A stretch of DNA of 64,000 bases from Pedobacter sp. (GTDB taxonomy: Bacteria > Desulfobacterota > Desulfuromonadia > Desulfuromonadales > Syntrophotaleaceae), in NCBI GenBank assembly GCA_050253415.1, contig JBFWJC010000002.1, positions 1 to 64,000 of the forward strand, in the 5' to 3' direction. The translations under genes and the position numbers were made by a program. The first letter of the stretch is position 1. Every line of letters begins with the position of its first letter. Below, one piece after another: positions 19,519-34,266 of the stretch. The notes under the pieces were generated by a model. The model made no database searches. It saw only the letters and a list, made by a program, of their open reading frames with translations, and was not told the DNA's origin.

Positions 19519-21258
19519 TTAAGCTCTCATCTCGTTACCTTCACGTATAATCGTTTCAATAATTTCATTATCACATAGTCCCTGCTGTAAAGAATTTTCC
19601 GCGAGAGGAATCAAGCGATCAAGTATCCTATTACGCTCTTCACACCTTCCTAGGTAGTCATAAGCTTTCGCCAAGGTATCAAGGGTATCAATGTCTTCGC
19701 TACTATCTATATCGAAACTTTCACTCAAATTATTTAGGTTTTTTTCTATAGAGTCAACTATGTCTTTTTTAATTTTTATGGCGCTATACATACTTTTGAC
19801 CTTAATCATATCTAGGGCATAATACAACAGGTTGTTATATAAATTATAGTTCCCATCATCATTTTCAAGACACTCCAAGGTTAAATAATAAGCCTTTTTA
19901 AGCATATTAACTTTCTTAATAGCATTTTTTACACAATCCAATTTTACTAATTCTGACTTATGCCAAAGATAATATCCGTATACCTTCGGAAGATATTTCT
20001 TGATGTGTTTATAATCAGATTCGGGTATTTCAACTGAATCTTCAAACCCCTTTTCTTCTATTTCTTTATATATACTATATGCTTCATTGCATTTTTTCAA
20101 AGATAGGTCTACAAGCCAATTTTGTCCATAAGCCTGGGCAAGTCTCATTTTGACTAGCAAAAAATCTGGGAAAATTTTTTCGATCTGCTCATATAAAATC
20201 AATGCGTCTTCTGCCTCTTTTTTTAAATTTGTTGACAAAAGACAAAAGGCATAATTCATACTCGAATAATAATAGAATAATTTTTTATCTTCATACTTAT
20301 CGTCAGCATATTTAAGATAAAGATCTTTGAATAATTTTCCAGACACAGAAAGTTTATCTATTTTTTCATTGTTTCTATCGGTAGAAAGGGACAATCCCTC
20401 CTCCCGTAAGCTCCTCGCTTCAACATATGTATCTATGTCACCCTGATCAATATTATGTTGTATAAAAAGATCAATAGTTTTTTGGTCAGATCCAACAGAT
20501 TTCAGTTTTAAATGGCCCACTTCTTCACAATTATCATCTAATATTTCAAGATGTATAGCATCAGCATATTCACCACAAGCATCAGAAAATTTCTTTAAAA
20601 TATCAAGGTGTCGAAGAATGCTATTTGGATTTCTTATTTTTAAATCACTATTTTTCCCTTTATTAAAGGAATAACCATACTTGTGGTCAACCTCTCCCCA
20701 TGCGTCTTCAAACACCGTCCTTATTTGTATCTCTACAGGTAAATAATATGTTTTTTCTTGAGAACTAAGTTTGTTAATTTTTTTATTAAGCCTTGCTACT
20801 ATATGAATGCTAGAATACTCACTACCTCTTTGCACGACGTTATAAATGCCATCTACTTCTAGATTTACTGATACATCCCTAAGCATTAAACCTATTTTAT
20901 CGTTAAATCGGTTTGAATAAAATATAAGTTCTTCTAGGCCATCCTTTTTAAAAGGATTAGGATCTAAACTGTTATTTCTAAGAACAATATTTAATAATTT
21001 TTCAAAGATATTTACCATATCAACACGAAATAAAGTTATCAGTCTTAGACCAATAACATCCGTGACATTTAGAATATCGTAATCAATTTTTCCTTCTTGT
21101 TTTTTTATAGATACCTTTTCAATCAATTTTTCTTCGGTTTTAACTCTTGTTTTATATGCATAACAGTCCGAAAGAACCCCGGCTTGTTTAAGTGCATTTA
21201 TTAGGAGTTCCTCTCCTTTTCGACCTTCGCTTTCAAGAAGCAACGCACTATATTCCAA
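19519..21258 (-). CDS. RelA/SpoT synthetase-domain protein with a long helical/TPR-like C-terminus
   Basis: RVKTEEKLIEK, TDVIGLR, YSSIHIV and EIQIRTVFEDAWGEVDHKYGY; TTG start after AAGGAG; visibly very AT-rich. Confidence 0.88.
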   Translation of the reverse strand: MEYSALLLESEGRKGEELLINALKQAGVLSDCYAYKTRVKTEEKLIEKVSIKKQEGKIDYDILNVTDVIGLRLITLFRVDMVNIFEKLLNIVLRNNSLDPNPFKKDGLEELIFYSNRFNDKIGLMLRDVSVNLEVDGIYNVVQRGSEYSSIHIVARLNKKINKLSSQEKTYYLPVEIQIRTVFEDAWGEVDHKYGYSFNKGKNSDLKIRNPNSILRHLDILKKFSDACGEYADAIHLEILDDNCEEVGHLKLKSVGSDQKTIDLFIQHNIDQGDIDTYVEARSLREEGLSLSTDRNNEKIDKLSVSGKLFKDLYLKYADDKYEDKKLFYYYSSMNYAFCLLSTNLKKEAEDALILYEQIEKIFPDFLLVKMRLAQAYGQNWLVDLSLKKCNEAYSIYKEIEEKGFEDSVEIPESDYKHIKKYLPKVYGYYLWHKSELVKLDCVKNAIKKVNMLKKAYYLTLECLENDDGNYNLYNNLLYYALDMIKVKSMYSAIKIKKDIVDSIEKNLNNLSESFDIDSSEDIDTLDTLAKAYDYLGRCEERNRILDRLIPLAENSLQQGLCDNEIIETIIREGNEMRA

Positions 21259-21579: not shown

Positions 21580-21949
21580 GTTTATCGGCTTTCCAATAAG
21601 TTATCTCGGATTGCTTTTCGGTCGATCAAACGAATATGGGCGGGTCTTCTAACAACTCCTGATCAATAGGAAAGGCCCTCCGATTTTCCTGGCGGGCCTT
21701 TCGCGTTTGGTGAGTGGTGATTTGTCTGGGATGTAGGGATCCCTAGTACCTACCATCGTTCGATAATGCGCAAATAGGAGGACAGACCTGCCTGTATAGT
21801 GAGTGCGGCCTGGTGACGCATTAATGCTCGCGCCCTGGAAGGACAGGTCGGATTCATGAATAAACTCCCTATTTTCTCCAAAATAATTGAAATAATGATG
21901 AATTTTTGCGATTCTTCTCAAAAGAAGAAATGCGCTGAAAAATGGATAG

Positions 21950-22032
21950 GCAACACAAGTGTTGCAAACCTCCCCCTCCAAATAAAGCAACTTATTTGTT
22001 GCATATTTGAAATAAAGAAACTTATGTGTTTC
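21950..22032. promoter_or_regulatory. Three 16-bp palindromic operators upstream of the XRE gene
   Basis: GCAAC-ACAAGT-GTTGC (21950), GCAAC-TTATTT-GTTGC (21987), GAAAC-TTATGT-GTTTC (22017). Confidence 0.7.
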
Positions 22033-22063
22033 GTTTAGCACAAAAAGCAATAAAGGAGTTTCT

Positions 22064-22354
22064 ATGGAAAAATCTCTGCTGCAGCAGATCAAAAAAAGAC
22101 GATTGATGCTGGGTTTCAAGCAACACGATATGATGATGCGCATCGGCGTATCCCGTCAGCAATACCAACGTTTGGAGGCCAAGGGCAATCCGCAACTAAG
22201 TACACTGGAACTGATTGCTGAAGGCCTTAACAGCGAACTAATGCTTATTCCCAAAGAAAAAGCGCTGGCCGTGATAGCTGTGCTTGAAGGGGCGCAGGAA
22301 AGGAAAAACCTGTCTGACGACCCGTGGCAGGGCATCCTTGATGATGCTCTATGA
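22064..22354 (+). CDS. XRE-family HTH regulator (HipB-like antitoxin)
   Basis: IKKRRLMLGFKQHDM...GVSRQQYQRLE..GNPQLSTL; RBS AAGGAG; acidic DDPW tail. Confidence 0.85.
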   Translation: MEKSLLQQIKKRRLMLGFKQHDMMMRIGVSRQQYQRLEAKGNPQLSTLELIAEGLNSELMLIPKEKALAVIAVLEGAQERKNLSDDPWQGILDDAL

Positions 22355-22446
22355 GCTATCACGATAGATGTTTTGACCGGGCAAGTTTCGCAACCTTAGT
22401 TACGCATAACTTGTTGCGCCATCGGATCAGACCGGGTGCTGAAATT

Positions 22447-22583
22447 CCTGCAAGCCAGGACATTGCCAGGATTCAATCAGAATTGGTGGAGGGTTTTGAG
22501 CCAAGAAGCCCCGGCGGGTCTAGAGCAATAACAATTGGCGGTTTTGGTGTCAGAAACCTTGGTGGTTTTCATAAGAATATGCA
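22447..22583 (+). repeat. IS21-like terminal sequence, copy 1 of a 137-bp direct repeat
   Basis: Internal sub-repeats of about 25 bp (TGGxGGxTTT...AGAA), ending AGAATATGCA; close copy at 24878-25014. Confidence 0.7.
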
Positions 22584-22830
22584 CTTTGTGCGCAACCGGA
22601 GCCGACCCCCAGGCCCTTGATTGCATTTCCGTCTGTTTTTCGTTGTGTGACCCTGGACTCTTAGTCATATTTTTTCGGTGAATTTTTCATTTTTTCATTT
22701 CATACAGAAAACGATGTAAAATCATATTGTTGTCCTTTAGACCTCGAAAGTAAACCCCTTGCCTTAAGTCTGAGGGTAGCAAAGGTCGCGACATGGACCA
22801 CCTTATGGTTATAGAGAGTTCCAAGCTTTC

Positions 22831-23541
22831 TTAGAATTGATCTCTGTCGAGGTAACGGCGTACGGCCAAAATACCTTCTTTTTTCATCACATCAAGAGGT
22901 GTCGCACCGTCAAAATGTCGATTGGACTGGGTAACCCAGCGATAGGCCAAATCAATGTTGTGCGGAAAGGTGATGCGCAGGGATTTATGTATGCCGAGAA
23001 GATGTCCCGCCCTTTCAAATAGATCCTGACTATCATCAAACGGGGCTCCGTTGCGATATTTGGAAAGGGAGTCAACGGACAAGCCGAGCAATGCGGCCTG
23101 ATCTCTGGTGTCCAACTGCCAGAGATCAAAAAGTTGGAACACTATCTTTGCCAGTCTTTGTCGGCCCTCGGATTCATGCAAATCGACTTTAAAGTGACCA
23201 TTTAGCGTGATATCCTCATCAATTTCGCGATTGATTTTTTCGAGACAATACTCAGCAAAGCCACTTTTCTCGCCTTCTATAAGCGCCTTGCGCAAGGCCT
23301 CCTTTTTGGCAACATCCTGGAGGATGATCGATGCGAGTATTGTTATCCCCTCGTCTCTGACATGCAGGACCTCCCCTTCCGTAACTTGAGAGGTATCAAG
23401 GTCTTCAGCAGAATATCGATAGACACGCAAGGGGTTTTCCCTATCCCCATCCGGCGATTTAGCATTGTGGCCTGTAACACGCAGAACCTCCTTGATGGTA
23501 CCTAAGGGGTTCTGTATTTTGATGCTGATTTCAAAAGGCAT
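22831..23541 (-). CDS. Antitoxin-like protein: Xre/MbcA/ParS-type C-terminal half with a ParD-like internal segment
   Basis: LFDLWQL...QAALLG...ERAGHLLGIHKSLRITFP...RWVTQSNRHFDGATPLDVM...VRRYLD; internal ALRKALIEGEKSG. Confidence 0.75.
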   Translation of the reverse strand: MPFEISIKIQNPLGTIKEVLRVTGHNAKSPDGDRENPLRVYRYSAEDLDTSQVTEGEVLHVRDEGITILASIILQDVAKKEALRKALIEGEKSGFAEYCLEKINREIDEDITLNGHFKVDLHESEGRQRLAKIVFQLFDLWQLDTRDQAALLGLSVDSLSKYRNGAPFDDSQDLFERAGHLLGIHKSLRITFPHNIDLAYRWVTQSNRHFDGATPLDVMKKEGILAVRRYLDRDQF

Positions 23542-23734
23542 AACGTTACTCCACCGATTCGTCTCCCACTGAAGAATTATGTTTGGTTAGTGCAGGAGCA
23601 ATCATGCTCCTCGAGCGTAACGCCCTTCGCATTAACACTGACACCGTAACTGCAATATTTCATAATATACTCGGGAGTGCCTACGAAACTAGTGGCGATC
23701 CAAAAGAGTCACAACGGGCGGAAATACGGAGCCT

Positions 23735-24765
23735 CTAGGAGTGATTCCACAATTGGTTAAAAATCGCATGATTACAGTTGGTTGTCATGGCTTGCGGCCT
23801 TGCCATGGTACCTAGGTCTGATTCCACGATTGCCGGGGGCGGGCAGATCGGCCGGAAGGAACGAACCCCTAGGTTTAGTTCCCCAATTGGCGCAAAACGC
23901 CATGATTACGATGAGTTATCCTGCTTGATGGACCTATGCCAGTACCTAGGTCTGATTCCACGATTGGCGGGGATCGTTGCTCGGGCCAGAGTGCCGGAGC
24001 CCTAGGAGTGATTCCACGATTGGTGGAAAAGCCCATAATTACAGTTGGTTATCATAGCTTGCGGCCTTGCCATGGTACCTAGGTCTGATTCCACGATTGC
24101 CGGGGGCGGGCAGATCGGCCGGAAGGAACGAACCCCTAGGTTTAGTTCCCCGATTGGCGCAAAACGCCATGATTACGATGAGTTATCCTGCTTGATGGAC
24201 CTATGCCAGTACCTAGGTCTGATTCCACGATTGCCGGGGGCGGGCAGATCGGCCGGAAGGAACGAACCCCTAGGTTTAGTTCCCCGATTGGCGCAAAACG
24301 CCATGATTACGATGAGTTATCCTGCTTAATGGCCCTATGCCAGTGCCTAGGTTTGGTTCCACGATTGGCAGAGAGCTTCACCTTGGTCGGAAGTGCGGAC
24401 TATTAAGGAGTGGTTCCATGATTGGCGAGAAACGTCATGATTACGGCTAGTTGCATGATTTGAGCAAATTTTCGCTATCTAGGTCTGATTCCACGATTGG
24501 CAGGGATCGCCATCCTGCCCGGAAGCGCGGGCTATTGAGGAGTGATCCCACGATTTGCGAGAAAAGCCATGATTACGGCGAGTTGCGCGATCTCAACAAT
24601 TGCCAAGCTATCTAGGTTTGATTCCCCGATTGCCGTGGGCGCCAGATCGGCCGGAAGGAAAGGACCCCTAGGTTTAATTCCACGATTGGCGAGAAGCGGT
24701 ATGATTACAGCAAGTTGCACGTGTTGAAGGGGGTTATTCTCTATCTAGGTCTGATTCCACGATTG
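23735..24765 (+). repeat. Non-coding array: 16 copies of a 21-bp box at alternating ~77/~57-bp spacing (~134-bp higher-order unit)
   Basis: Consensus CTAGGTCTGATTCCACGATTG starting at 23735, 23812, 23869, 23946, 24002, 24079, 24136, 24213, 24270, 24347, 24404, 24479, 24536, 24612, 24668 and 24745. Confidence 0.95.
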
Positions 24766-24877
24766 CATCGCCCCGATTTCCCCAAAACTATTGGCCTATG
24801 GTTAGAATATGTCTCGGAAGTTGTCCTGGATAAATTAAAACTTTCATTTTGGGGTAAAACCTTGGGGGCTCACAACC

Positions 24878-25014
24878 CCTGCAACCCAGGACATTGCCAG
24901 AATTTTATCAGAATTGGTGGAGGGTTTTGAGCCAAGAAGTTCCGGCGGGTTTAGAGCAATCACAAGTGGCGGGTTTGGTGTCAGAATCCCTGGCGGTTTT
25001 CATCAGAATATGTA
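24878..25014 (+). repeat. IS21-like terminal sequence, copy 2 of the 137-bp direct repeat
   Basis: CCTGCAACCCAGGACATTGCCAG...TGGCGGTTTTCATCAGAATATGTA. Confidence 0.7.
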
Positions 25015-25083
25015 GCATAGGGGCTTTGCTTTTCTATAGAGCATATTCCCGCTACCCAACTTTATGCGCAAACCCTACGAACA

Positions 25084-25524
25084 CTATTTACCCAATAACT
25101 GTAGAATGGCCAAGTGCCCTCTCACCGTTTTGAGCTCTTCCTTCAGCTCATCGACTTTTTTTTCCGCATTCTGTCGCTTGCGTACCTCTTCATTCTTGTC
25201 AGCTATTGCTTTGTGCCACTTCTTTTTATACCTATCTCGGTCTTCCTGAATTTTTACATATTCCTCCCTGGTAATGGTCTCGCCAGGTGCGGGGATTTTG
25301 AGGTGCTTCTGCTTCCCCCACTTAAGTTCCTTTAGCTCTTCTTTGACGTGGCCTTTGTAGAGGAGCGACTGTGTCGACAAACCTACTTCTTCTAATGAAG
25401 CTGGCGTCTCAGGGAGCCCGAGTTCACGCACAGCAGCAACTAATTCCCGTATCTCCTTCCGTGTTTCTTGTCTTTGTGCTTCCCAACGCTTTTCAAGGTG
25501 TTCAGGTTTTTGTCCTTTGCCCAT
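25084..25524 (-). CDS. Small basic coiled-coil protein, last gene of the recombinase operon (TnpC/GinD-like by architecture)
   Basis: RBS AGGAGG; MGKGQKPEHL...; possible HTH followed by a C-terminal coiled coil. Confidence 0.7.
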   Translation of the reverse strand: MGKGQKPEHLEKRWEAQRQETRKEIRELVAAVRELGLPETPASLEEVGLSTQSLLYKGHVKEELKELKWGKQKHLKIPAPGETITREEYVKIQEDRDRYKKKWHKAIADKNEEVRKRQNAEKKVDELKEELKTVRGHLAILQLLGK

Positions 25525-25535
25525 AACAGCCCTCC

Positions 25536-27722
25536 TTACGCGGCAAGAGCAGAATCCAAACAAAAGCCAACATTCAACATGTCTGCCCTTGGAGACCTCT
25601 TTACAGCACTATCAAAATGACTTCGATTTCCGATAAGCACAACTTGTACTCGGGCGCGTGTAATTGCAGTGTAAATTAGACTGCGATCTAAATGTCCATA
25701 ATCAAACACAGGGATTATTATGCGGTCAAACTCGCTTCCCTGAGACTTGTGAACCGTTATTCCATATGCCAACTCAATCCCTGACTCAGAGATTTCATCG
25801 TCTGTCATGGAGTATTCTTTGCCGTCAAACTCAAAAACAGGTTTCCGCCCATCCAGATGCTTTAAGACACCCAGAGTGCCATTGTAAAGCTCTAGCTCTT
25901 GATTGTTTCTGGTAACGATAACCGGGTCATTGACATACATCTTCCAGCGCACCAGTTCCATTTGTTTCTGGGCATCATTGTGGCCAAACTGAAAATAGCT
26001 GTTAATTCGATTTGTTGAGTCTTTGCCCTTGCGCTTTCGAGCAGAAAGTATCTGGCAATCATGTTTCAATTCTTTGCTGACACGGAACAGTTCTTTAACT
26101 ACCAAGTCTTCCTCACAGTCCAAAAAGAAGACCCCATCCGCCGGACCTACATAATCAGGCAAGGTCTGCATCTCTTTATTGCGAACCTTTTGCGCGACAA
26201 GAGGAATCTCGGTAAGACCTCCACGAACGACGACATCGAGATTAACGCGACGTATAGCCTTAGATGTGCATAGACGGTGAAACACCAGCCCGAACCCGAT
26301 AGGGGGCAACTGCGCCGGGTCGCCAACCATAAGAAGGCGGTAGTGTTTGGGGAGGGAGCGCAGTAGTCTGTGAAATAGGGCTAAGTCAACCATGCTCGCT
26401 TCATCGATAATTATCAACGGGTTTGGCTCAAGAGTGATTGCCTTCGGGTCATCTGGAGACTCTAGCCCCAGATTGATCTTGTGGATAAAGGCATGAATCG
26501 TGTGAGCTGGGCGACCTGTCGTTTTGCGCAAATGCTCCTTCGCGCGACCTGAGAGCGCCATCTGATAAACGGTCTGACCGAGGGCAGTGGCAACGCTATG
26601 AACCCCCTTCATGATAGTGGTCTTGCCTGTGCCTGCACCTCCAGTGATTATTGAAAGGTTGGACGTAGTCGCAACCTCTATAGCCTCCTTCTGGCTGGGT
26701 TTGAGGCGGCTCTCCTTTTCGCTATAGAAGGTGTCATCATAGCGGGCGACCAGTTTTCGTAATTGCTCAAAATCTTTAGAAAACAAGCTTGTCTGGCTTT
26801 GGCTGTGGTCTCGTCTCACCAGTTCGACCAAATCCTTTTCGATGTATGCTTCCATGGCGGCCGGTCCTATGCCCTGAATGTTGGAGGAGCCGAGCTGCAC
26901 GATAGCATTTTTTCCAGCAGCCGCCCTAATCGCGTCATCGGCGAGCTTGTTACTAGAGCTGCCTAGTAGGGTCTTTATCCTCTCTCTTAGGGCAGGCAAT
27001 TCTGTGCTTGTGTGCCCCTCTTCCAAGCGGTCATAGATTGCTTGTTCGACGGCTGCTGCAAGCCTCTTTTTATCATTTTTGCCGAAACCCAGCTTAGCGG
27101 CACTCTCATCTGCTGCCTTCCATAGACTCCTTCTACCAAAGCCAAATGCAATAAGCCGATAAGGGTTATCCCTCAACCGCTCTTCTGCATTGTTGCCATA
27201 AATCTTTATGATCGTGTTGGCTAGGCCACGGTCAAATCCGTACTTTTCAAGAAAGTTAAGGGTGCCAGTTTCCGCTGAGACCCTATGCCACGCACCGAGC
27301 AGAGATTCAGCGACATTTGTCGTTAGAATCGAGGACAGAAGCAGTAAGTCTTTGTCGTTTAAAGCTTTGAGCAAAGAGGGGCCTTCGAGACCATTTGCCT
27401 TTAGCTGGTCCATCTTTTTCTTGCCGAAACCAAATCCTCTGAACTCAGGATGTTCAAGAAGAAATCGGCGGAGAAGGCCAGTTTCACTCGGGACAACTGG
27501 AGTCGCACTTTTGCAATGAATTGTGTCCGGATATTTAGAATGTGGCTTACGTTCACCCTTGACACGCCAGGTCTCGCCTATTTGTGGGATGCGGTAAAGC
27601 CACTTCATGTCCACCTTGGCGCTGAAGTCGAAACCGTCCGCACACTTGCCGAAAAAAACTGCCCCGCCTAATGGTCCGGCTTCCACATGCTCTACCTGAA
27701 AGGTTGCTTCAACAGCACACAT
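25536..27722 (-). CDS. RecD2-like SF1B DNA helicase
   Basis: GGAGTGKT, IIDEASM, GDPAQLPPIG, YGITVHKSQGSEFD, YTAITRAR; N-terminal HhH region with DNPYRL. Confidence 0.93.
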   Translation of the reverse strand: MCAVEATFQVEHVEAGPLGGAVFFGKCADGFDFSAKVDMKWLYRIPQIGETWRVKGERKPHSKYPDTIHCKSATPVVPSETGLLRRFLLEHPEFRGFGFGKKKMDQLKANGLEGPSLLKALNDKDLLLLSSILTTNVAESLLGAWHRVSAETGTLNFLEKYGFDRGLANTIIKIYGNNAEERLRDNPYRLIAFGFGRRSLWKAADESAAKLGFGKNDKKRLAAAVEQAIYDRLEEGHTSTELPALRERIKTLLGSSSNKLADDAIRAAAGKNAIVQLGSSNIQGIGPAAMEAYIEKDLVELVRRDHSQSQTSLFSKDFEQLRKLVARYDDTFYSEKESRLKPSQKEAIEVATTSNLSIITGGAGTGKTTIMKGVHSVATALGQTVYQMALSGRAKEHLRKTTGRPAHTIHAFIHKINLGLESPDDPKAITLEPNPLIIIDEASMVDLALFHRLLRSLPKHYRLLMVGDPAQLPPIGFGLVFHRLCTSKAIRRVNLDVVVRGGLTEIPLVAQKVRNKEMQTLPDYVGPADGVFFLDCEEDLVVKELFRVSKELKHDCQILSARKRKGKDSTNRINSYFQFGHNDAQKQMELVRWKMYVNDPVIVTRNNQELELYNGTLGVLKHLDGRKPVFEFDGKEYSMTDDEISESGIELAYGITVHKSQGSEFDRIIIPVFDYGHLDRSLIYTAITRARVQVVLIGNRSHFDSAVKRSPRADMLNVGFCLDSALAA

Positions 27723-27731
27723 ATCTGCTCC

Positions 27732-28247
27732 TTAGAGAATGGTCCTGCGCCCCGTTTCAAAGAGATGATCAAGGGCTGTTTTTTCGCTCCGATACCTAGC
27801 TTTCAGCTTCCTCTTACAACTTTCCAGTTCAGCTTCGAGGGTCTCTTTTTCCTGAGTGAGACGGTAAATGGTTTCCTGATATGCGCTTATAGTTGCGTCT
27901 TTCTCGGCGTCACTATTCTTAATGTCACTGTCCGCCTTTACCACCTCACATCCAACCTCAGCGATATCGTCATCGATGCGGCATTTGATGTATCTGTTTT
28001 TATAAAGTCGTCCTCGGTCAACCCCGACGGCGCCTGCAATGGCTGCAATATTGGCTGAACCTGTGTTCCTTGCCGCCGGAAACCTTTGCCCGGAAGATTT
28101 CAACTCCTCGACATAGTCCAACCACCAAAGGTACTGAATAATTGCCACTTCGGAGTTGTTGCCGCACGTCACCTCCTTCATTGCATTTTTGTCCCCACGC
28201 TTTATCTTGCGATACTCTGGATTGATAGATTCAGGGACCTCATACAT
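27732..28247 (-). CDS. Small HTH/coiled-coil accessory protein (TnpC/GinD-like)
   Basis: ANIAAIAGAVGVDRGRLYKN HTH-like segment plus a coiled coil; overlaps the upstream recombinase stop. Confidence 0.7.
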   Translation of the reverse strand: MYEVPESINPEYRKIKRGDKNAMKEVTCGNNSEVAIIQYLWWLDYVEELKSSGQRFPAARNTGSANIAAIAGAVGVDRGRLYKNRYIKCRIDDDIAEVGCEVVKADSDIKNSDAEKDATISAYQETIYRLTQEKETLEAELESCKRKLKARYRSEKTALDHLFETGRRTIL

Positions 28248-30051
28248 TGTCGCCTCCTATTGGTATTTCGGCATTGTCAATGCGCTCTATGAGCTTCTTG
28301 TAGAGGCTGGCCTTGTTCAGGGCATTATTCATCAGGGAATCATGCGCCATGGCCTCTGCCTTGTGCGCCTTATCTTCATACTCCGAGATCTTGTTAAGGT
28401 AATAGTCCCTCTCCTCGGCATCTGGAATCAGGTAGTCGCAGCCAAGGCACTGAAACAGGCCTGACCCACAGCTTGTCATGTCTGCGCAAATTCCCAATCT
28501 CCCGACCCTCTGGGCTTTGATATTCCTTTCAAGTAGGATCTTTTCAGCGGCATCTGAATTGATGATTTTGCCCTTGAAAAAGATGGATTCGCCCTTACGC
28601 TCTCTGATTTTATCAGCAACTTTCTTCTGGCGTTCGTCCTGGGAATGGTCATAAGTATCCTCAATCATCCTCTCATTACGGTGGCCGGTTTCCGCCATGA
28701 CTTGGTGTGTAGTCCATCCTTCCGCCATGCGGTCAGTGACATTATTATGTCGCAGTTGATGGGGATTGATGGAATACAAGTTTCCGTCCTCATCAACAAC
28801 ATGTTCCTTTGGGAGTTCACGATAGAGCCAAATATAAACGTTTCTTCGAGTAGCAACCTGAGGCTTATCAGCTTTTTCAAACCAGGAGACCGGAGGGCAC
28901 GGTGGCGTGTGTTTATCAATCAGGGCGTCGTCAATAACGGACGGCCCACCGCACCCAAACTTTACATCATCAAGAAAAGCCTGCATGTAAGGGCTATGGA
29001 ATGTTTGATGACTCAAGCGCTTCTCGGGAGGAGAAAGTTTTGGCCCCATCTTCAACAAAGCGGTTTGGTTTTCGGCAAGGTGGTGCTCGCGCATATATTC
29101 AATGCACTTCTTCGCCCTTACCAAAGCATCTCGTTGTTGAGGGGTGTTGTCGGTTGCCCGATGCTTCCATGTGTAGGTCAACAAAAAGCCCCGTTTCTTT
29201 ATGGGTAGATCCTTTTGAAGTTGCCGTGCGACAGCTTGTTGCTGTTTGATAAGATCGACAAGGAAAGCTCCCATCCCCTCAAGCTTGACTGTTGTCACCA
29301 AAATCCGGCCAGGCCCGTCAGGGTTGCCTGATTGCTTATATTCAGGGATAAGAACGGACATGTACCCTTTACGGTTCGGTTTCAGGCAGTCAATTTGCAT
29401 CGAGGAAACCTCTGTGCCGCGATTGGGAATGAGGCGATGAAGCCAGTAAGCAACTCTCCGCTCAAGCGGGGTTGTTTCGGCACTATAGATTTTGTCGATC
29501 TGAGCGAGTACATACTCAGGCACAGGCTTGACTTCAGAGCGCTTGCTTCTCAGAAAGGGGTTGGGCCTCGGGACCGGGAATTTAATGGGAGAAAAGGGCC
29601 ACCCGACCATTGAAGAATAGAAAACGTCAACGGCGCTCCAGTAGGAATTGCGTGTTCTCTGCGCTAATTTCTGTGACGTCAAGCGAGCCTGGAATAAGGT
29701 CATGCTTTGCCTGTCAACACTGTCAAACCAAATGTTATGCTCATTCAAAAACTCGCAAAAGGGTACTAGGTTGGATACGGCGACTCTTGTAGTGTTGAGG
29801 CTGACTCCAGTTTGAAGCCTGTATAAAGCATAGAGCTTAATTGGCTCACGATATGCTTCAGGAATGGTGATGAAACGAAGGGTCTTTTCGTCATTTGATA
29901 TATTCTTGGCGCCAGAAACCGACTTGTCCATGACCCACGCATTGTCCGACGGTTTGGCGGCTGAGGAATAAGTTGAAAGGAGCTCATATAGCTTGAGGTC
30001 AGAGTTCTCCTCATAAACTTCAGCAATATTGTAATATGCACTGCTACCCAT
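28240..30051 (-). CDS. Tyrosine recombinase 3 (large, Cys-rich C-terminus)
   Basis: PNRGTE (R), PHQLRH (HxxR), TGH...DTY (H, Y); tail GICADMTSC...CLGC. Confidence 0.88.
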   Translation of the reverse strand: MGSSAYYNIAEVYEENSDLKLYELLSTYSSAAKPSDNAWVMDKSVSGAKNISNDEKTLRFITIPEAYREPIKLYALYRLQTGVSLNTTRVAVSNLVPFCEFLNEHNIWFDSVDRQSMTLFQARLTSQKLAQRTRNSYWSAVDVFYSSMVGWPFSPIKFPVPRPNPFLRSKRSEVKPVPEYVLAQIDKIYSAETTPLERRVAYWLHRLIPNRGTEVSSMQIDCLKPNRKGYMSVLIPEYKQSGNPDGPGRILVTTVKLEGMGAFLVDLIKQQQAVARQLQKDLPIKKRGFLLTYTWKHRATDNTPQQRDALVRAKKCIEYMREHHLAENQTALLKMGPKLSPPEKRLSHQTFHSPYMQAFLDDVKFGCGGPSVIDDALIDKHTPPCPPVSWFEKADKPQVATRRNVYIWLYRELPKEHVVDEDGNLYSINPHQLRHNNVTDRMAEGWTTHQVMAETGHRNERMIEDTYDHSQDERQKKVADKIRERKGESIFFKGKIINSDAAEKILLERNIKAQRVGRLGICADMTSCGSGLFQCLGCDYLIPDAEERDYYLNKISEYEDKAHKAEAMAHDSLMNNALNKASLYKKLIERIDNAEIPIGGDNV

Positions 30052-30068
30052 TCCTTTCCTCCAAGAAC

Positions 30069-32012
30069 TTAAAGGTCAATGTTCCTAAGTGTGTCAGTGT
30101 AAGAATCCAGCCTATGTTTTTCAGATTGATATTCGCGATATTTAGAGAAAACTGCTTCAGGGATACCTTCACTTTGATAGGCCCTGACAAGCTCATCGGT
30201 AATTCTGATTTGAGAATCAACGAGGTTCTGCCATTTCTTGCGATATTTCTTGCCCGTGCATAGATTTGGGCACTCGGCACAGGATGTTTCATGCTCACTC
30301 CGCTTGCCGCAAGGCCCGTCCGCCATGTGTTTAACACACTGTCCAAATTCAACATCTCGGCGCCCGAGGCAAAAATCAACAAACAGTTGGCGCCTTTCAT
30401 CTTCGGTATAGGCCTTCAGAACTTCTTCGCCAACATGAACCTCAAATCGTTTATTCCAAAACTCGTTGTTCATGTCGGCAAGTTTTAATTGTTTCGCTTC
30501 GTTATAGTAGGTGTCCGCAGTCTGAATGGTCGCCCAATTGAACTGCGCCAGAAGTTCTGGAGTTGTTGCGCCATCGTTAATTAGATCTACCGCCAAGGTC
30601 TTGCGGCACTGGTGCGTACCAAAGCGCCACAGGGTTCCATCCCAGGTGCAAATGTTATGCTTGGCGATTAGTTCATTCATCTCCCTGATAATAGTGCCTG
30701 TGCTTAAAGGAGAGATGTCGCCCAGAAACTTTGAGTTTCTTCGGACAAAAATCTCTTTTATCTCTTTTCCAGAACGCATGTCCTTTGTAGATTCTGCCTG
30801 CTGGATAAAGGCGGCGAGAACATCGTTGTCGGCGACGTTTATGACATGAAACTTGTCTAGGCCTTTCAGCTTTCGGAATTTCGCTGTTTTATTGGGGAGG
30901 TATTTGAGCCAATACTCGTCTTTCAGTGGTTCGTGCCTGAGCCAATCCTCTTCAAGAGAATTGGCCTCACCGACACGCATCCCCGTCCCCGACATGATTT
31001 CAAAAATGTGTCGGACATCATTGTTGAGGTCTGCCCTGTGGAGGTAAATTTGATCTATCACCTCTTCAGGGATGAAGTCCGCATTTTTAACGTGGTCGTC
31101 TATTGCTCTAAATACGACGCGGCTAAAGGGGTTCTGATGAGGTGGTTGCTCGCCAGTAGGCAGCAGTTCAGGTTTTTTAACGAAGAAGTCAAGGAAGCTG
31201 TCCATCAAGCGAATATGTGAAAATACGGTCTTGGGGGCCATCCCTTTTCGCTCCGTATTTCTATTTCTATTGGTTTCTATCTCATGCTCAAGGTAGTGTA
31301 GAAGCTTGCGCATTAGGGTTATATTGATATCTCGCAGAGACAAGACTTCGGGTGCCGCGTCCTGAATGTACAGCAAGCAGGTCTTTATATTTTCGAAAGG
31401 AGTACTGGTAAGAGGTTGCCATTGGCCCCCCTTGTACCCATTCGCCAGGTAGGTCTTCAGGCACTGTCTGAAAGAAGCATTTTTAATCACACGGAAATCA
31501 AAGGTCCTGCTCGAAAGCGTATCGACGTTAAGTAGGTAAATAGACCAGACATCATCAGTTGTTTCGTAAACCTTCCGATTTTCCTTTGGAAAGAGTTTCT
31601 TCTGTAATTCGCCCTCGCGAAGCACGTGAGGGAGAATAAATTTTTGGTGCACTTTACCTATTGGAATACCATTAGAGCTTTCTGGTAATATGTATTCGAG
31701 CATAAACGCTTGGACTGAAACCTGTCGCCGATTAGCGGTAAACTGCTCCTTCAAGACCCTTTCCACGTAAGCGTCAAATTTCCCCGGCCAAAGCTGCTCC
31801 GCAATAGTGACCATGCTGCTCATAGCCATTTCCTTGTAGACAGACCTGAGCGGAGCGATCCCGTTCAGGCCATCACGCAGTTCATCAATTACCCTGACGG
31901 CTAATTCGGGGTCGCGGCGAAAGGCCTTGCTTGTCTTCCATGACGGATTATATTCAATCGTTACCCCATTGTAGTCCAGGGTGCGCATAGGTTTAGTCAT
32001 CACCACGCTCAT
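30069..32012 (-). CDS. Tyrosine recombinase 2 (large, Tn554 TnpB-like)
   Basis: TGMRVGE, THQCRKT, FNW...DTYY; tail GQC...PC...CAEC. Confidence 0.9.
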   Translation of the reverse strand: MSVVMTKPMRTLDYNGVTIEYNPSWKTSKAFRRDPELAVRVIDELRDGLNGIAPLRSVYKEMAMSSMVTIAEQLWPGKFDAYVERVLKEQFTANRRQVSVQAFMLEYILPESSNGIPIGKVHQKFILPHVLREGELQKKLFPKENRKVYETTDDVWSIYLLNVDTLSSRTFDFRVIKNASFRQCLKTYLANGYKGGQWQPLTSTPFENIKTCLLYIQDAAPEVLSLRDINITLMRKLLHYLEHEIETNRNRNTERKGMAPKTVFSHIRLMDSFLDFFVKKPELLPTGEQPPHQNPFSRVVFRAIDDHVKNADFIPEEVIDQIYLHRADLNNDVRHIFEIMSGTGMRVGEANSLEEDWLRHEPLKDEYWLKYLPNKTAKFRKLKGLDKFHVINVADNDVLAAFIQQAESTKDMRSGKEIKEIFVRRNSKFLGDISPLSTGTIIREMNELIAKHNICTWDGTLWRFGTHQCRKTLAVDLINDGATTPELLAQFNWATIQTADTYYNEAKQLKLADMNNEFWNKRFEVHVGEEVLKAYTEDERRQLFVDFCLGRRDVEFGQCVKHMADGPCGKRSEHETSCAECPNLCTGKKYRKKWQNLVDSQIRITDELVRAYQSEGIPEAVFSKYREYQSEKHRLDSYTDTLRNIDL

Positions 32013-33198
32013 TCTTTTTTTGACGCTCCGTTTGCTCTGTTTTGCGTTTTTTTATACGCCCAGCAACATGCTTTTGTGTCTCTTCGTTCATAGGGTCCAG
32101 ATAATTCAACAAAGGGGAACCGGACTTCCACTTGCGTTTATCAATTATGTAACGGTCATTTACTCCATCCTCTGGGTGCTTCATTGCATGAAGGACGAGG
32201 TTTTGTGTATCAGTGCTTCGCCCAGCATGGGTGACTATTATTTGGGGATCGAACCCAGCAAGATTTGCTGCCGTCTTGAGAATAGTAAGGAAATTGCTGT
32301 AACTAACAGCCTTGCCTTGGTGTTTTTGGTGTCGTTTTAGGTTCACGAAGAAAGGAACCAGAAGCCGCCCTAGGCGCTGTTCTAAAGGAGTTCTTTCGAG
32401 ATTGATATAGTCTTGCAGAATGCGTGCAGTATCCGGGTTACTAAAGTGGACCCAACCAATTTCGCTCTGAGTCACCTTTCCCTTTGACCGTGTTGGCCGA
32501 ACCTTTGCTTCATAGGGGTCGAACCCGTCAGCTTCAATGCTAAGGACTTCGTCTATTCGTAAGCCCTCCAAAGTCAAGGCGAAGATGGCCCTGTCTCGCA
32601 ATGTCCGAAAGCAAGCCATAATGCCGTTGACCTGGTCTTGGCTATAGTGCTTGAGTTTTTTATGCTTGGGTGGGTCAGGTAAACCCAAGAGGTTAATGTT
32701 ATCAAGGTATTGATTGGTCTCGATTTCCCAAATTTGGCCATAAACATAACTCTGCTTTGAGCGCTTATAGCCTTTTGCTTCGCGGGTTTTTCTAGATACA
32801 GGCTCGTTTTCGTCAATATTACCGTCCATATGCTTGTAAAGCTCCTTCAGGACAGTAATGTATGTCTTTAGGGTGGGGAGGTCGACCTGTGGATTAAGGG
32901 ACACCACCTGTTCTTTCAAGTCAGCCCCCATGCCGATGGTTCGCAAGTATACGTTGACATCCTTCTTGGTGGCATCAGTAAAAGTCTTGTTGCGCCCAAG
33001 GAGAAAATTCAACCATGGAACGATAATGTTGCCGTAAGTACGGGCGGTGCCGATAGACCTCAGCGCCTTAGATATGAGAAATGAGTTAATCTCAGCTACG
33101 AGCATAAGGTCGGGGTCTTCCACAATGCAGACCTCAACCTCCCTCTCTTTTATCGAGAAAACAGCGTTCACCAATCTATACCTACCCTTGTTACTCAC
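31993..33198 (-). CDS. Tyrosine recombinase 1 (Tn554 TnpA-like)
   Basis: LRDRAIF..EGLRIDE, THAGRS, RKW...LNY; probable GTG start at 33198 after GAGGAG. Confidence 0.88.
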   Translation of the reverse strand: MSNKGRYRLVNAVFSIKEREVEVCIVEDPDLMLVAEINSFLISKALRSIGTARTYGNIIVPWLNFLLGRNKTFTDATKKDVNVYLRTIGMGADLKEQVVSLNPQVDLPTLKTYITVLKELYKHMDGNIDENEPVSRKTREAKGYKRSKQSYVYGQIWEIETNQYLDNINLLGLPDPPKHKKLKHYSQDQVNGIMACFRTLRDRAIFALTLEGLRIDEVLSIEADGFDPYEAKVRPTRSKGKVTQSEIGWVHFSNPDTARILQDYINLERTPLEQRLGRLLVPFFVNLKRHQKHQGKAVSYSNFLTILKTAANLAGFDPQIIVTHAGRSTDTQNLVLHAMKHPEDGVNDRYIIDKRKWKSGSPLLNYLDPMNEETQKHVAGRIKKRKTEQTERQKKNERGDD

Positions 33199-33291
33199 GC
33201 TCTCCTCCTCGTTCCGTTTCCCGAGGGTAAACATTAACCTTCTGCAATAAACCAACAAGACTTCTTTAACACAAAAATTCACGATAGTAAA

Positions 33292-33322
33292 CAAAAAAGG
33301 TGCCTATAAATACAGGCACCTT
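33292..33322 (-). terminator. Terminator just inside the element end, blocking read-through from pncB
   Basis: Minus strand reads AAGGTGCCT-GTATTTAT-AGGCACCTT followed by a T run. Confidence 0.65.
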
Positions 33323-33368
33323 CAGGATTATTTATTGTGAAATTGGTTTATTGTGAAGAGTTTATCAA

Positions 33369-34058
33369 CTAAACATGAGCCATGGTGCCGACCGGTGGCA
33401 AACCCAGTTGGCGGGCCAGGTGCATGTTGCTGGTTCCCGCCAGGTAGTCCGGAATTTCACGGTTGAGGATATCCAGTACCCGTTCCTGCCACTGGCGGTT
33501 GAAGCGGCGGCGGGTGCCGAAGTCGATAATCCGCAGTCCGTCCAGCTGGCCGCGCTGCTGCAACAGTGCGATCTTTTCGAAAAGGCGCCGCTGTCCCGTA
33601 GCATAATCGGGCCGGGGGTAGGCGGCTCTGGTATGGACCTCGTTGATGATCGACAGGCCGTAGATTTCAAAGAGGGTGACCTGCAGCAGGGGACCGTGCA
33701 GGCGCAGCTCGATGTTCTCGCTGTCAGGGCGCAGCGAGAGGTGGTTCATCTCGAGACGCACCGTGGCCAGATAGTCCAGGAAATCAGGTTTGAAATAGCC
33801 CAGGGTCGCCAGGTAGCGAATTTCGTCGTCTTGAAAGCGTAGCGAGCACAGATGCTCGAATTGGCGACGGATCTCCGGGATCAACCGCCGGAGTTGCTTG
33901 TTTTCGGGATTCCGGCACTTGAATTTCCATTCGGTGTCAGCCCCCTCGAATGCACTGCAGTGGTAAAAGGCCTGCAACATGGTGAGCTTGTACAGGTCCG
34001 TATCCAGCAGGGTCTCGATAATCCAGGGCATGTTTTGTGTCTGTGCGGTCATTGTCAT
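33369..34058 (-). pseudogene. pncB: Nicotinate phosphoribosyltransferase, 5' half only
   Basis: LLDTDLYKLTM, DFGTRRRF, GTSN, then GTMAH followed immediately by V-stop; about 230 codons versus about 400 expected. Confidence 0.9.
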
Positions 34059-34266
34059 CTCCGGAAGAGGTGAACTGAACGTTACCATATCCTTTGCAAG
34101 GGAAAAACCCGTTTTGCGCAAAAAGGTCCGGAGCGCAGCTAGTGGACGGGGCCAAATTTTTAAGGGACAATGGCTTATGAGAGAAAGACCAAGGGGATTT
34201 CGAAGTTCGGCTGGTATCGGTCCGGGCGCATTCATGGAATAGGCATTTCATCCAGGGGATTTTATC

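Follow-up and report, generated by a model that had tools for sequence, protein, structure and literature searches.

The stretch of DNA analysed here, referred to as the window, comprises positions 1 to 64,000 of contig JBFWJC010000002.1 (contig C2 below) of Pedobacter sp. assembly GCA_050253415.1, a genome placed by GTDB in the family Syntrophotaleaceae. Our subject is an operon of six minus-strand open reading frames (ORFs), which span positions 33294 to 25084 in the ORF list, and in particular the helicase that the operon encodes. The six genes are the left-end mobility module of a 33,499-nt genomic island (an IS3-family insertion not counted) that splits the pncB gene. ORF calls and profile alignments identify the first product as a TnpA-like tyrosine recombinase, A (31993-33198, 401 aa), followed by two large TnpB-like tyrosine recombinases with four-cysteine tails, B (30069-32012, 647 aa) and C (28240-30051, 603 aa). 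The remaining genes encode D (27732-28247, 171 aa), a small TnpC/VPA1267-like protein and proposed helicase adaptor, H (25536-27722, 728 aa), a RecD2-like SF1B helicase, and F, a small coiled-coil protein.

All six genes lie on the minus strand and are tightly packed, as the first-pass annotation of this DNA had described them, coordinates included. A begins with a GTG codon, the start already named in that annotation, which is preceded at 5 nt by the Shine-Dalgarno sequence GGAGGAG. A and B overlap by 20 nt, B and C are separated by 17 nt, C and D overlap by 8 nt, and a gap of 9 nt lies between D and H. For F, the ATG start at 25524 (25084-25524, 146 aa), which leaves a gap of 11 nt after H, is more likely than the TTG start (25084-25563, 159 aa), with which the two genes would overlap by 28 nt.

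Recombinases of the core

B and C were compared with a profile of TnpB-like large recombinases built for this study. B matched at E 3.4e-23 with its Arg (GMRVGE), Lys, HQCR, Trp and Tyr all aligned; C matched at E 5.3e-9 with Arg (NRGTE), Lys, HQLRH, His and Tyr aligned and with an insertion of about 90 residues. A matched a profile of first-gene recombinases that included TnpA (E 1.4e-16), with Arg (GLRIDE) and HAGR aligned; this alignment ends before the last Trp and Tyr of A, which are candidates picked by eye. The earlier claim that all three recombinases retain their catalytic residues thus holds in full for B and C and, in A, for the Arg and HxxR positions. Pfam recognised Phage_integrase (PF00589, E 1.6e-10) in B, and Phage_int_SAM_1 together with the C-terminal part of PF00589 in C; A had no Pfam match.

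The Cys-rich tails that the first-pass annotation had noticed in two of the recombinases are real features of B and C. Just past the catalytic Tyr, at residue 559 in B and 522 in C, both carry the motif C-x(6-9)-C-x(5-9)-C-x2-C. The same motif occurs in the two large recombinases, B2 and C2p, of a second module in this genome (described below), in a Tn554-family TnpB, and in the second or third recombinases of two other loci.

Against TnpB of a Staphylococcus aureus plasmid (NZ_CP096533.1, L127), B showed 21% identity over 438 aa (E 5e-13) and C a weaker match (E 1e-4). A is tied to TnpA only indirectly, because the link runs from A to A2, the first recombinase of the second module (28% identity, E 6e-8), and from A2 to TnpA (E 1e-59). 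A search of a large protein collection for close relatives of B and C returned only their own cluster, and B was not found in the genomes of 60 relatives. Since B and C have no close relatives in that collection, we started the survey of related loci from the helicase.

A helicase clade tied to recombinase modules

H has the RecD2 set of Pfam domains in RecD2 order (AAA_30, HHH_RecD2, SH3_13, UvrD_C_2) and all SF1B motifs, among them the Walker A sequence GGAGTGKT pointed out in the first-pass annotation. It differs from RecD2 proper in scoring 366.4 bits against the NCBIfam RecD2 equivalog TIGR01448, under the 500-bit cut-off, and in sitting on a separate tree branch. The clade to which H belongs has its own N-terminal region and its own motif III, VGDxxQL[PS]P[IV]GFG. 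A RecD2-type match is present in 208 of 400 genomes of the phylum, the top one scoring 219.8 bits versus 272.6 for H2, the helicase of the second module; in 13 genomes of the same order or class there was none at E 1e-20 or better. Out of 1.84 billion cluster representatives, 104 outranked H2. The best of these is 46% identical to H, and most cover H from within its first 20 residues.

A genome scan retained, among the matches listed, 80 helicase loci, four of them clade members and 76 canonical RecD2. Noviherbaspirillum has three recombinases (429, 516, 732 aa), two small genes (171, 169 aa), and then the helicase. In Halomonas, proteins of 494 and 879 aa (the latter PF13009) are followed by small genes of 226 and 156 aa and the helicase. 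Paraburkholderia has the same genes in permuted order, the recombinases lying downstream of the helicase, and in the fourth locus the sequence runs into the end of its contig. Clade helicases also occur on plasmids. Five rhizobial, Bradyrhizobium or Brucella plasmids encode, ahead of the helicase, proteins of about 390, 510, 786, 151 and 136 aa and, behind it, varied cargo that includes a mer operon; two of these five copies are partly decayed. A Rhodovastum plasmid bears a variant module with a RepB-primase-domain gene, and on a Klebsiella IncHI1B plasmid the gamma-mobile-trio (Gmt) genes are followed by a VPA1267 gene and the clade helicase. In four of the five alphaproteobacterial plasmid copies (L116, L118, L120, L121), a divergent ISNCY-family transposase gene lies just upstream of the first recombinase.

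The neighbourhood survey proposed in the first-pass annotation was carried out on metagenome loci selected solely by the back-translated helicase motif QLPPIGFGL. At least 120 stretches were obtained, 80 of them loci with DNA, and a helicase matching the clade profile was present in 71 of the 80. For the 35 loci with at least 5.5 kb of upstream sequence, we counted recombinases of at least 250 aa within 7.5 kb. One or more tyrosine recombinases lay upstream on the same strand in 32 of the 35 loci, two or more in 22 and three in 10; a D-like gene stood directly upstream of the helicase in 33. Two of the three recombinase misses have truncated helicases. Passed through the same pipeline, the 49 canonical RecD2 loci that had enough upstream sequence, out of the 76, yielded neither an upstream same-strand recombinase (0/49) nor a D-like gene (0/49), and a recombinase anywhere within 9 kb was seen in only two. 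Furthermore, 32 of 40 loci show a 4-nt overlap between the stop of the small gene and the start of the helicase; the window has a 9-nt gap.

The helicase is therefore a genuine, co-conserved member of the module rather than a chance neighbour, and its clade is found almost only beside recombinase operons. The proposal of the first-pass annotation, an extended variant of a multi-recombinase integrative element with a co-conserved helicase, is upheld by the second copy in this genome, by the alpha-, beta- and gammaproteobacterial loci, by the 32/35 versus 0/49 count, and by the translational coupling to the D-like gene.

These data bear on two other views of the helicase. The first is that the D-like gene and the helicase are cargo, a hitch-hiking cassette with, for example, a defence or anti-defence function that settled behind recombinase operons and has no part in movement. 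The cassette is indeed optional across the superfamily, defence genes such as one for a NACHT protein follow the helicase in Halomonas, and the GInt paper (PMC5385486) has cargo starting right after the small gene. This view does not sit well with the fixed position and the 4-nt gene overlap, with the kinship of the small partner to TnpC, itself a transposition protein, or with a clade that occurs almost only in a recombinase context, in three module types and several phyla. We consider this view very improbable.

The second view holds that the recombinases and H form a split relaxase-helicase: a recombinase would nick one element end and H would unwind one strand 5' to 3' for transfer through the conjugation pore of a co-resident plasmid or ICE, making the island mobilisable. 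H is related to the helicase domains of TraA/TraI relaxases (TIGR02768, E 8.5e-35), and many of its relatives reside on conjugative plasmids. The SE paper calls GInts and SEs 'putatively non-mobilizable', which leaves their cell-to-cell spread an open question. The core, however, showed neither an oriT nor a coupling protein or relaxase-type motif, no dedicated test having been run. Moreover, tyrosine recombinases attach to the 3' phosphate and relaxases to the 5' end, so that the polarity would be unlike that of known transfer. We regard mobilisation of this kind as quite improbable.

A predicted adaptor for the helicase

D matches DUF6262 with 30.6 bits (cut-off 29, E 4.2e-7). It aligns with 31 other small proteins encoded next to clade helicases in a common layout: a helix-turn-helix-like N-terminal part, a coiled coil, and a conserved end, ..TGRR..P, which in D reads ..ETGRRTIL. 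The helicase-adjacent small proteins of Halomonas, Noviherbaspirillum and Klebsiella belong to the NCBIfam 'VPA1267 family', and the Halomonas protein resembles TnpC (E 3e-5). In the sequences compared, the tail is present in helicase-adjacent proteins, namely D, S2 of the second module and the Noviherbaspirillum and Halomonas members, and absent from two Tn554-family TnpC proteins, from S1 of the second module, from GmtX and from F.

When H and D were modelled as a complex, the score was 0.70 versus 0.00 for the best control, and three runs gave 0.69, 0.72 and 0.70, with pLDDT of at least 77 for the partner and at least 93% of the contacts common to the runs. Of 157 solved complexes 116 attain the 0.70 mark, as do 2 of 215 mismatched pairs; these counts apply only approximately here, since the H-D model was run on our own alignments. 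In the model, residues 150-171 of D contact H at 170-195, 223-233, 271-290, 448-452 and 477, an interface that includes the clade-invariant NPY at positions 186-188 of H. The model supports binding of the conserved C-terminal tail of D to H.

The first-pass annotation had counted F, too, as a part of the extended variant, a claim that did not survive comparison. F has no Pfam or NCBIfam family, its hhalign probability against the D family is 3%, and among 17,350 ORFs from all fetched loci it matched only itself. By these comparisons, F is specific to this element and would stand outside the conserved machinery.

Further modules in the same genome

When the genome was searched with the six proteins by tblastn, a second module emerged on contig C5, with all its genes on one strand: A2 (376 aa), B2 (613 aa), C2p (632 aa), the small proteins S1 (134 aa) and S2 (147 aa), and H2 (720 aa). 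S1 matches DUF6262 (E 1.6e-11), S2 shares 27% identity with D, and the full-length identity between H2 and H is 30%. In comparisons with the S. aureus plasmid proteins, A2 aligns with TnpA along its whole length at 33% identity (E 1e-59); TnpB is matched by B2 at E 3e-60 and by C2p at E 2e-83, and TnpC by S1 at E 1.5e-9. By these matches the C5 module plainly belongs to the Tn554 family. Because B and C of the window match TnpB less well, the window element is a more diverged member built on the same plan.

IS (insertion sequence) debris follows H2. A dUTPase gene (L005 16548-17009, on C5) lies 4 nt upstream of A2 and is 43-44% identical to dut of three genomes of the genus. With so low an identity this dut is probably foreign, which precludes an empty-site comparison, and the ends of the C5 element could not be located through it.

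A third module (C4:122-4602, L254) consists of a C-terminal tyrosine-recombinase fragment, cut by the same IS3-family insertion sequence that interrupts the island, together with a 1021-aa PF13009 (GmtZ-like) protein and a 240-aa protein.

Relation to known elements

By sequence, the closest relatives of the core proteins are TnpA, TnpB and TnpC of Tn554. The Tn554 family, represented for instance by the dfrK-linked S. aureus copy (NZ_CP096533.1), shares with our element a small recombinase, a large recombinase with a four-cysteine tail and a DUF6262 protein in the same order, as well as site-specific insertion at a 6-bp core and the absence of long terminal inverted repeats. Each of the components by which the family is recognised has its counterpart here: a TnpA-like first gene (of the ~360-aa type), a TnpB-like gene (of the ~630-aa type) and a TnpC of the DUF6262 family. 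The name 'DUF6262 family protein (TnpC)' is that of Table 1 in PMC11947258, and the 6-bp core of Tn554 rests on the '6-bp footprint' that the SE paper describes as common to SE and Tn554. Tn554 differs in having a set of three genes, tnpABC, instead of six with a doubled TnpB-like gene, a helicase and F. Our element, in turn, has 25 kb of cargo, a predicted helicase-binding tail on its small protein and a Gram-negative environmental host, and the identity of its proteins to TnpB is low (21%).

GInts (Tn6571 family, ginABCD; Bardaji et al. 2017, PMC5385486) were compared by their description in the accessible part of that paper. Like the island, they have three recombinase genes and a small gene at the 5' end, long variable cargo, a short AT-rich 3' end, and site-specific insertion into a gene or at its end; a resemblance of GinD to TnpC is also noted there. 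Unlike C, GinC lacks the first catalytic arginine, GInts have imperfect direct repeats of 10-17 nt whereas the repeat here is an exact 6 nt, and a helicase is not mentioned in that part of the paper. SEs, again in the available portion of their description, similarly combine several proteins of the tyrosine-recombinase fold with a small protein; they are target-specific with a 6-bp footprint, and their copy-out-like model needs unwinding or replication of one strand. They differ by their order intA-tfp-intB-srap, in which Tfp lacks RHRY, from the small-large-large order found here, where all three recombinases have catalytic residues; they occur mainly in Gammaproteobacteria, and a helicase is neither encoded nor discussed in the portion available.

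The gamma-mobile-trio elements (GmtY/GmtZ/GmtX; NF040693, NF047926, NF040692) with VPA1267 (NF040697) include copies that carry a clade helicase, in Klebsiella and Halomonas, and D can be aligned with their VPA1267 members. They differ in that GmtZ belongs to PF13009, and A, B, C and D match no Gmt model at E 0.01 or better. We met the Gmt and VPA1267 names only as database annotation, with no paper linking them to a helicase. RIT recombinases are about 300-400 aa long and RIT elements have long inverted repeats; the recombinases here have 401, 647 and 603 aa, and no long terminal inverted repeat was found. Descriptions of RIT, so far as accessible, list three adjacent, overlapping recombinase genes, ritA, ritB and ritC, that form families of their own; our element was set against RIT by description only.

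The cassette thus accompanies Tn554-like, three-recombinase and gamma-mobile-trio modules. Since many relatives lack it, the pair of D-like gene and helicase is, to judge from these loci, an optional two-gene accessory cassette added to several kinds of multi-recombinase module. The first-pass annotation had named merely sporadic adjacency of the helicase as a finding that would speak against its proposal. Many modules of the superfamily are indeed without a helicase, but wherever the helicase is present its position is fixed.

A proposed role for the helicase in element movement

We consider it reasonably probable that the six genes are the module of a site-specific element of the Tn554 superfamily in which the tail of D holds H in place to serve copy-out or replication of the circle, the cassette being optional. 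In such a scheme, A, B and C would cut and rejoin the element ends, and D, as a TnpC-like DNA-binding protein, would sit on the ends or on the recombinase complex and retain H there. A recombinase would nick one strand and leave a 5'-OH; H, translocating 5' to 3', would then peel that strand of the element off the chromosome. The outcome would be strand-biased, copy-out-like circle formation, or circle replication, without reliance on a host helicase. A precedent for copy-out exists in the SE paper, which makes the case that related elements form their circles in a strand-biased, copy-out-like manner.

Several observations weigh against this reading. Some concern relatives that do without the cassette. 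Tn554, GInts (PMC5385486) and SEs recombine with three or four genes, no helicase being mentioned in the accessible parts of their descriptions. Both Tn554-family plasmid copies that we examined contain tnpABC without a helicase, a Gmt trio on a Pseudomonas syringae plasmid lacks the VPA1267-helicase pair, and the C4 module of the present genome has no helicase either. A GmtZ-like gene is found on 149 plasmid records and an H-like helicase (E 1e-40 or better) on 38, but the two were seen together on only two. H2, moreover, has GKN in its Walker A motif and VE for DE in Walker B, so that the ATPase may be dispensable, or this copy may be decaying or inactive. Others concern our methods. The labels of recombinases and small genes come from three rounds of phmmer, although a Pfam spot check of 26 proteins agrees with them and rescues the third recombinase miss, L194, which starts with a Phage_integrase gene. 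The complex score expresses the confidence of the model and was computed on our own alignments. Finally, a FastTree phylogeny of 118 helicases speaks for the linkage, in that one branch with SH-like support of 100 separates 51 associated from 67 canonical rows, but this split is partly built in because 45 of the 51 associated rows were chosen by motif. That selection did not apply to H2, the plasmid row or the three genome rows.

Because Tn554, GInts and SEs function with no such gene of their own, we regard the cassette most readily as an enhancer, or else as a substitute for a host function. The sampled relatives of the host, the 13 genomes of the same order or class, lack RecD2.

A bolder version of the same idea, which we regard as rather unlikely, is that Tn554, GInt and Gmt transposons move via a single-stranded intermediate and that adaptor and helicase are a dedicated strand-displacement motor, which together with the recombinases would make up a split relaxase-helicase-like machine for copy-out circles or intercellular transfer.

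Our literature search, which covered main texts and some of these in passages, turned up no publication that connects a helicase with Tn554, GInt, SE, RIT or Gmt modules. The word 'helicase' is likewise absent from the accessible main texts, supplements aside, of the GInt, SE, Escherichia coli defence-island and TBSSR annotation papers. The pairing of a RecD2-like helicase with a small adaptor thus recurs among tyrosine-recombinase transposons as an add-on that has apparently not been described. Genes for resistance, virulence, defence and metabolism travel on Tn554-like, GInt and SE elements, and the way in which these form circles, together with the reason for the apparent use of just one strand, is an unsettled question on which the helicase bears. 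Together with its predicted TnpC-like adaptor, the helicase provides a handle for mutation, at Walker A, the adaptor tail and the NPY pocket. In addition, the helicase clade combined with a VPA1267-like gene can serve as a sequence marker for such islands, including those on large Enterobacterales and rhizobial plasmids.

Repeats beside the core

About 300 nt past F lies a tandem array (23710-24775) of eight units of about 134 bp, which contains some 16 copies of the 21-nt motif CTAGGNNTGATTCCACGATTG. A related array, with a 185-bp segment at 95% identity, follows the helicase-less recombinase module on contig C4 (C4:5352-6426, L254). An Rfam scan of positions 22300-25200 gave no match. The array is a candidate for a set of binding sites or an origin-like or centromere-like site.

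The array lends itself to an account in which H acts after excision, as a replicative or maintenance helicase of the circle that is perhaps loaded at the array and allows plasmid-like persistence before reintegration. Replication has been reported for excised SCC elements and ICEBs1, which such an element would resemble. The array beside the core, its relative after another recombinase module on C4, and the RepB-primase-domain gene in the Rhodovastum plasmid module all fit this account. Nevertheless, the C4 module has the array and no helicase, and for this reason array and helicase are not tied to each other. A Pfam scan found no initiator or primase in the core of the window, and SF1B helicases are not known to function as replicative helicases. 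We hold a post-excision role of this kind to be improbable.

Another repeat, of about 135 bp, is present at 24878-25012 (copy a), at 22447-22581 (copy b, 90%) and near the right end of the island at C1:145-273 (copy c, 83%). Copies a and b have the same orientation, copy c is inverted in the orientation of the island, and metagenome contigs branch at this repeat.

The island and its insertion site

The 5' part of pncB, the gene for nicotinate phosphoribosyltransferase, occupies positions 33374-34235 of the minus strand and is cut after ..GTMAH, leaving the Pfam domains NAPRTase_N and NAPRTase, the latter at positions 1-54 of 239. The truncated ORF (33369-34235) corresponds to the first 286 residues, and its frame stops inside the element at 33369-33371. 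The remainder of the gene stands at the start of another contig of this genome (C1:381-925). An intact pncB with 84% amino-acid identity is present in genome G005 of the same genus; in DNA from this genome (L122), the match to the left flank extends to position 1500 and that to the right flank sets in at position 1505. The 6-bp core CTCATG occurs once in this empty site (L122 1500-1505) and at both junctions here, with the left copy at C2:33374-33379 on the minus strand and the second at C1:381-386.

The element consists of three parts: the 8.3-kb core (47.6% GC), some 25 kb of cargo and, on the right, an end of 253 nt, of which the last 110 nt have 25.5% GC. The left element end (33199-33373, minus strand, 35% GC) contains two direct TTCACAATAA, an inverted TTCACGATAG and a terminator hairpin with a 12-bp stem (33296-33323) that would block read-through from pncB. 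A TTCACGATAA matching the left-end motif lies near the right end at C1:351-359. The element ends have no long terminal inverted repeats, only these short sub-terminal motifs, and a promoter scan was not above shuffled sequence (7 found versus a shuffle mean of 9.6).

The assembly is broken by the IS3-family insertion sequence, whose 3' end occupies positions 1-127 of the window on the plus strand and whose other end is at C1:1-127. The genome contains at least three copies of it. Because the other two pair through 4-bp target duplications, CTTC and CTTG, the join of C1 to C2 across this copy follows by elimination. The copy in the island is without a matching target duplication and may have deleted or rearranged neighbouring cargo.

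The stretch across the left junction is present in sequencing runs of four further studies besides the possible source. In X2, a single contig of 8,500 letters equals positions 24910-33409 with no differences and crosses the left junction by 36 letters; X3 has the same span in two contigs, also with no differences, and X4 and X5 contain fragments. Other contigs of X2 and X4 pass from pncB directly into the reverse complement of C1:387-416, that is, through an uninterrupted gene, with several base differences. Occupied and empty sites therefore co-occur in the same samples. Since the empty-site contigs differ in sequence, they reflect presence/absence polymorphism among strains and not excision. 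The unequal depth of pncB and the element in X2-X4 is not a measure of copy number. None of the listed runs is of RNA, and no joints were reported in this comparison, which covered the stretch on C2, the right end of the element being on another contig.

The cargo (128-25083) was characterised by a Pfam scan. Genes concerned with nitrosative stress and nitrite encode a ScdA/YtfE-like protein, a flavodiiron protein, the hybrid-cluster protein Hcp, an HPP protein and a fused NirBD-like reductase. Others encode a MacAB/TolC-like efflux set with a TetR regulator, a PAS histidine kinase, a GGDEF protein, a RelA/SpoT-like protein and an Xre/MbcA-like antitoxin. In this genome, then, the element both disrupts pncB and imports a nitrite and nitrosative-stress gene set.

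Within the cargo (19519-21258 and 21649-23541), the 579-aa RelA/SpoT-domain protein is encoded in a patch of 31% GC. Beside its gene are a helix-turn-helix gene, a 164-aa ORF without a family, and a gene resembling antitoxins of the Xre/MbcA/ParS type. This region may be a toxin-antitoxin or defence pocket in the cargo. Elsewhere in the genome, contigs C7, C8 and C10 end in long heptanucleotide tandem repeats with CACTTGT and ACCAGTC units.

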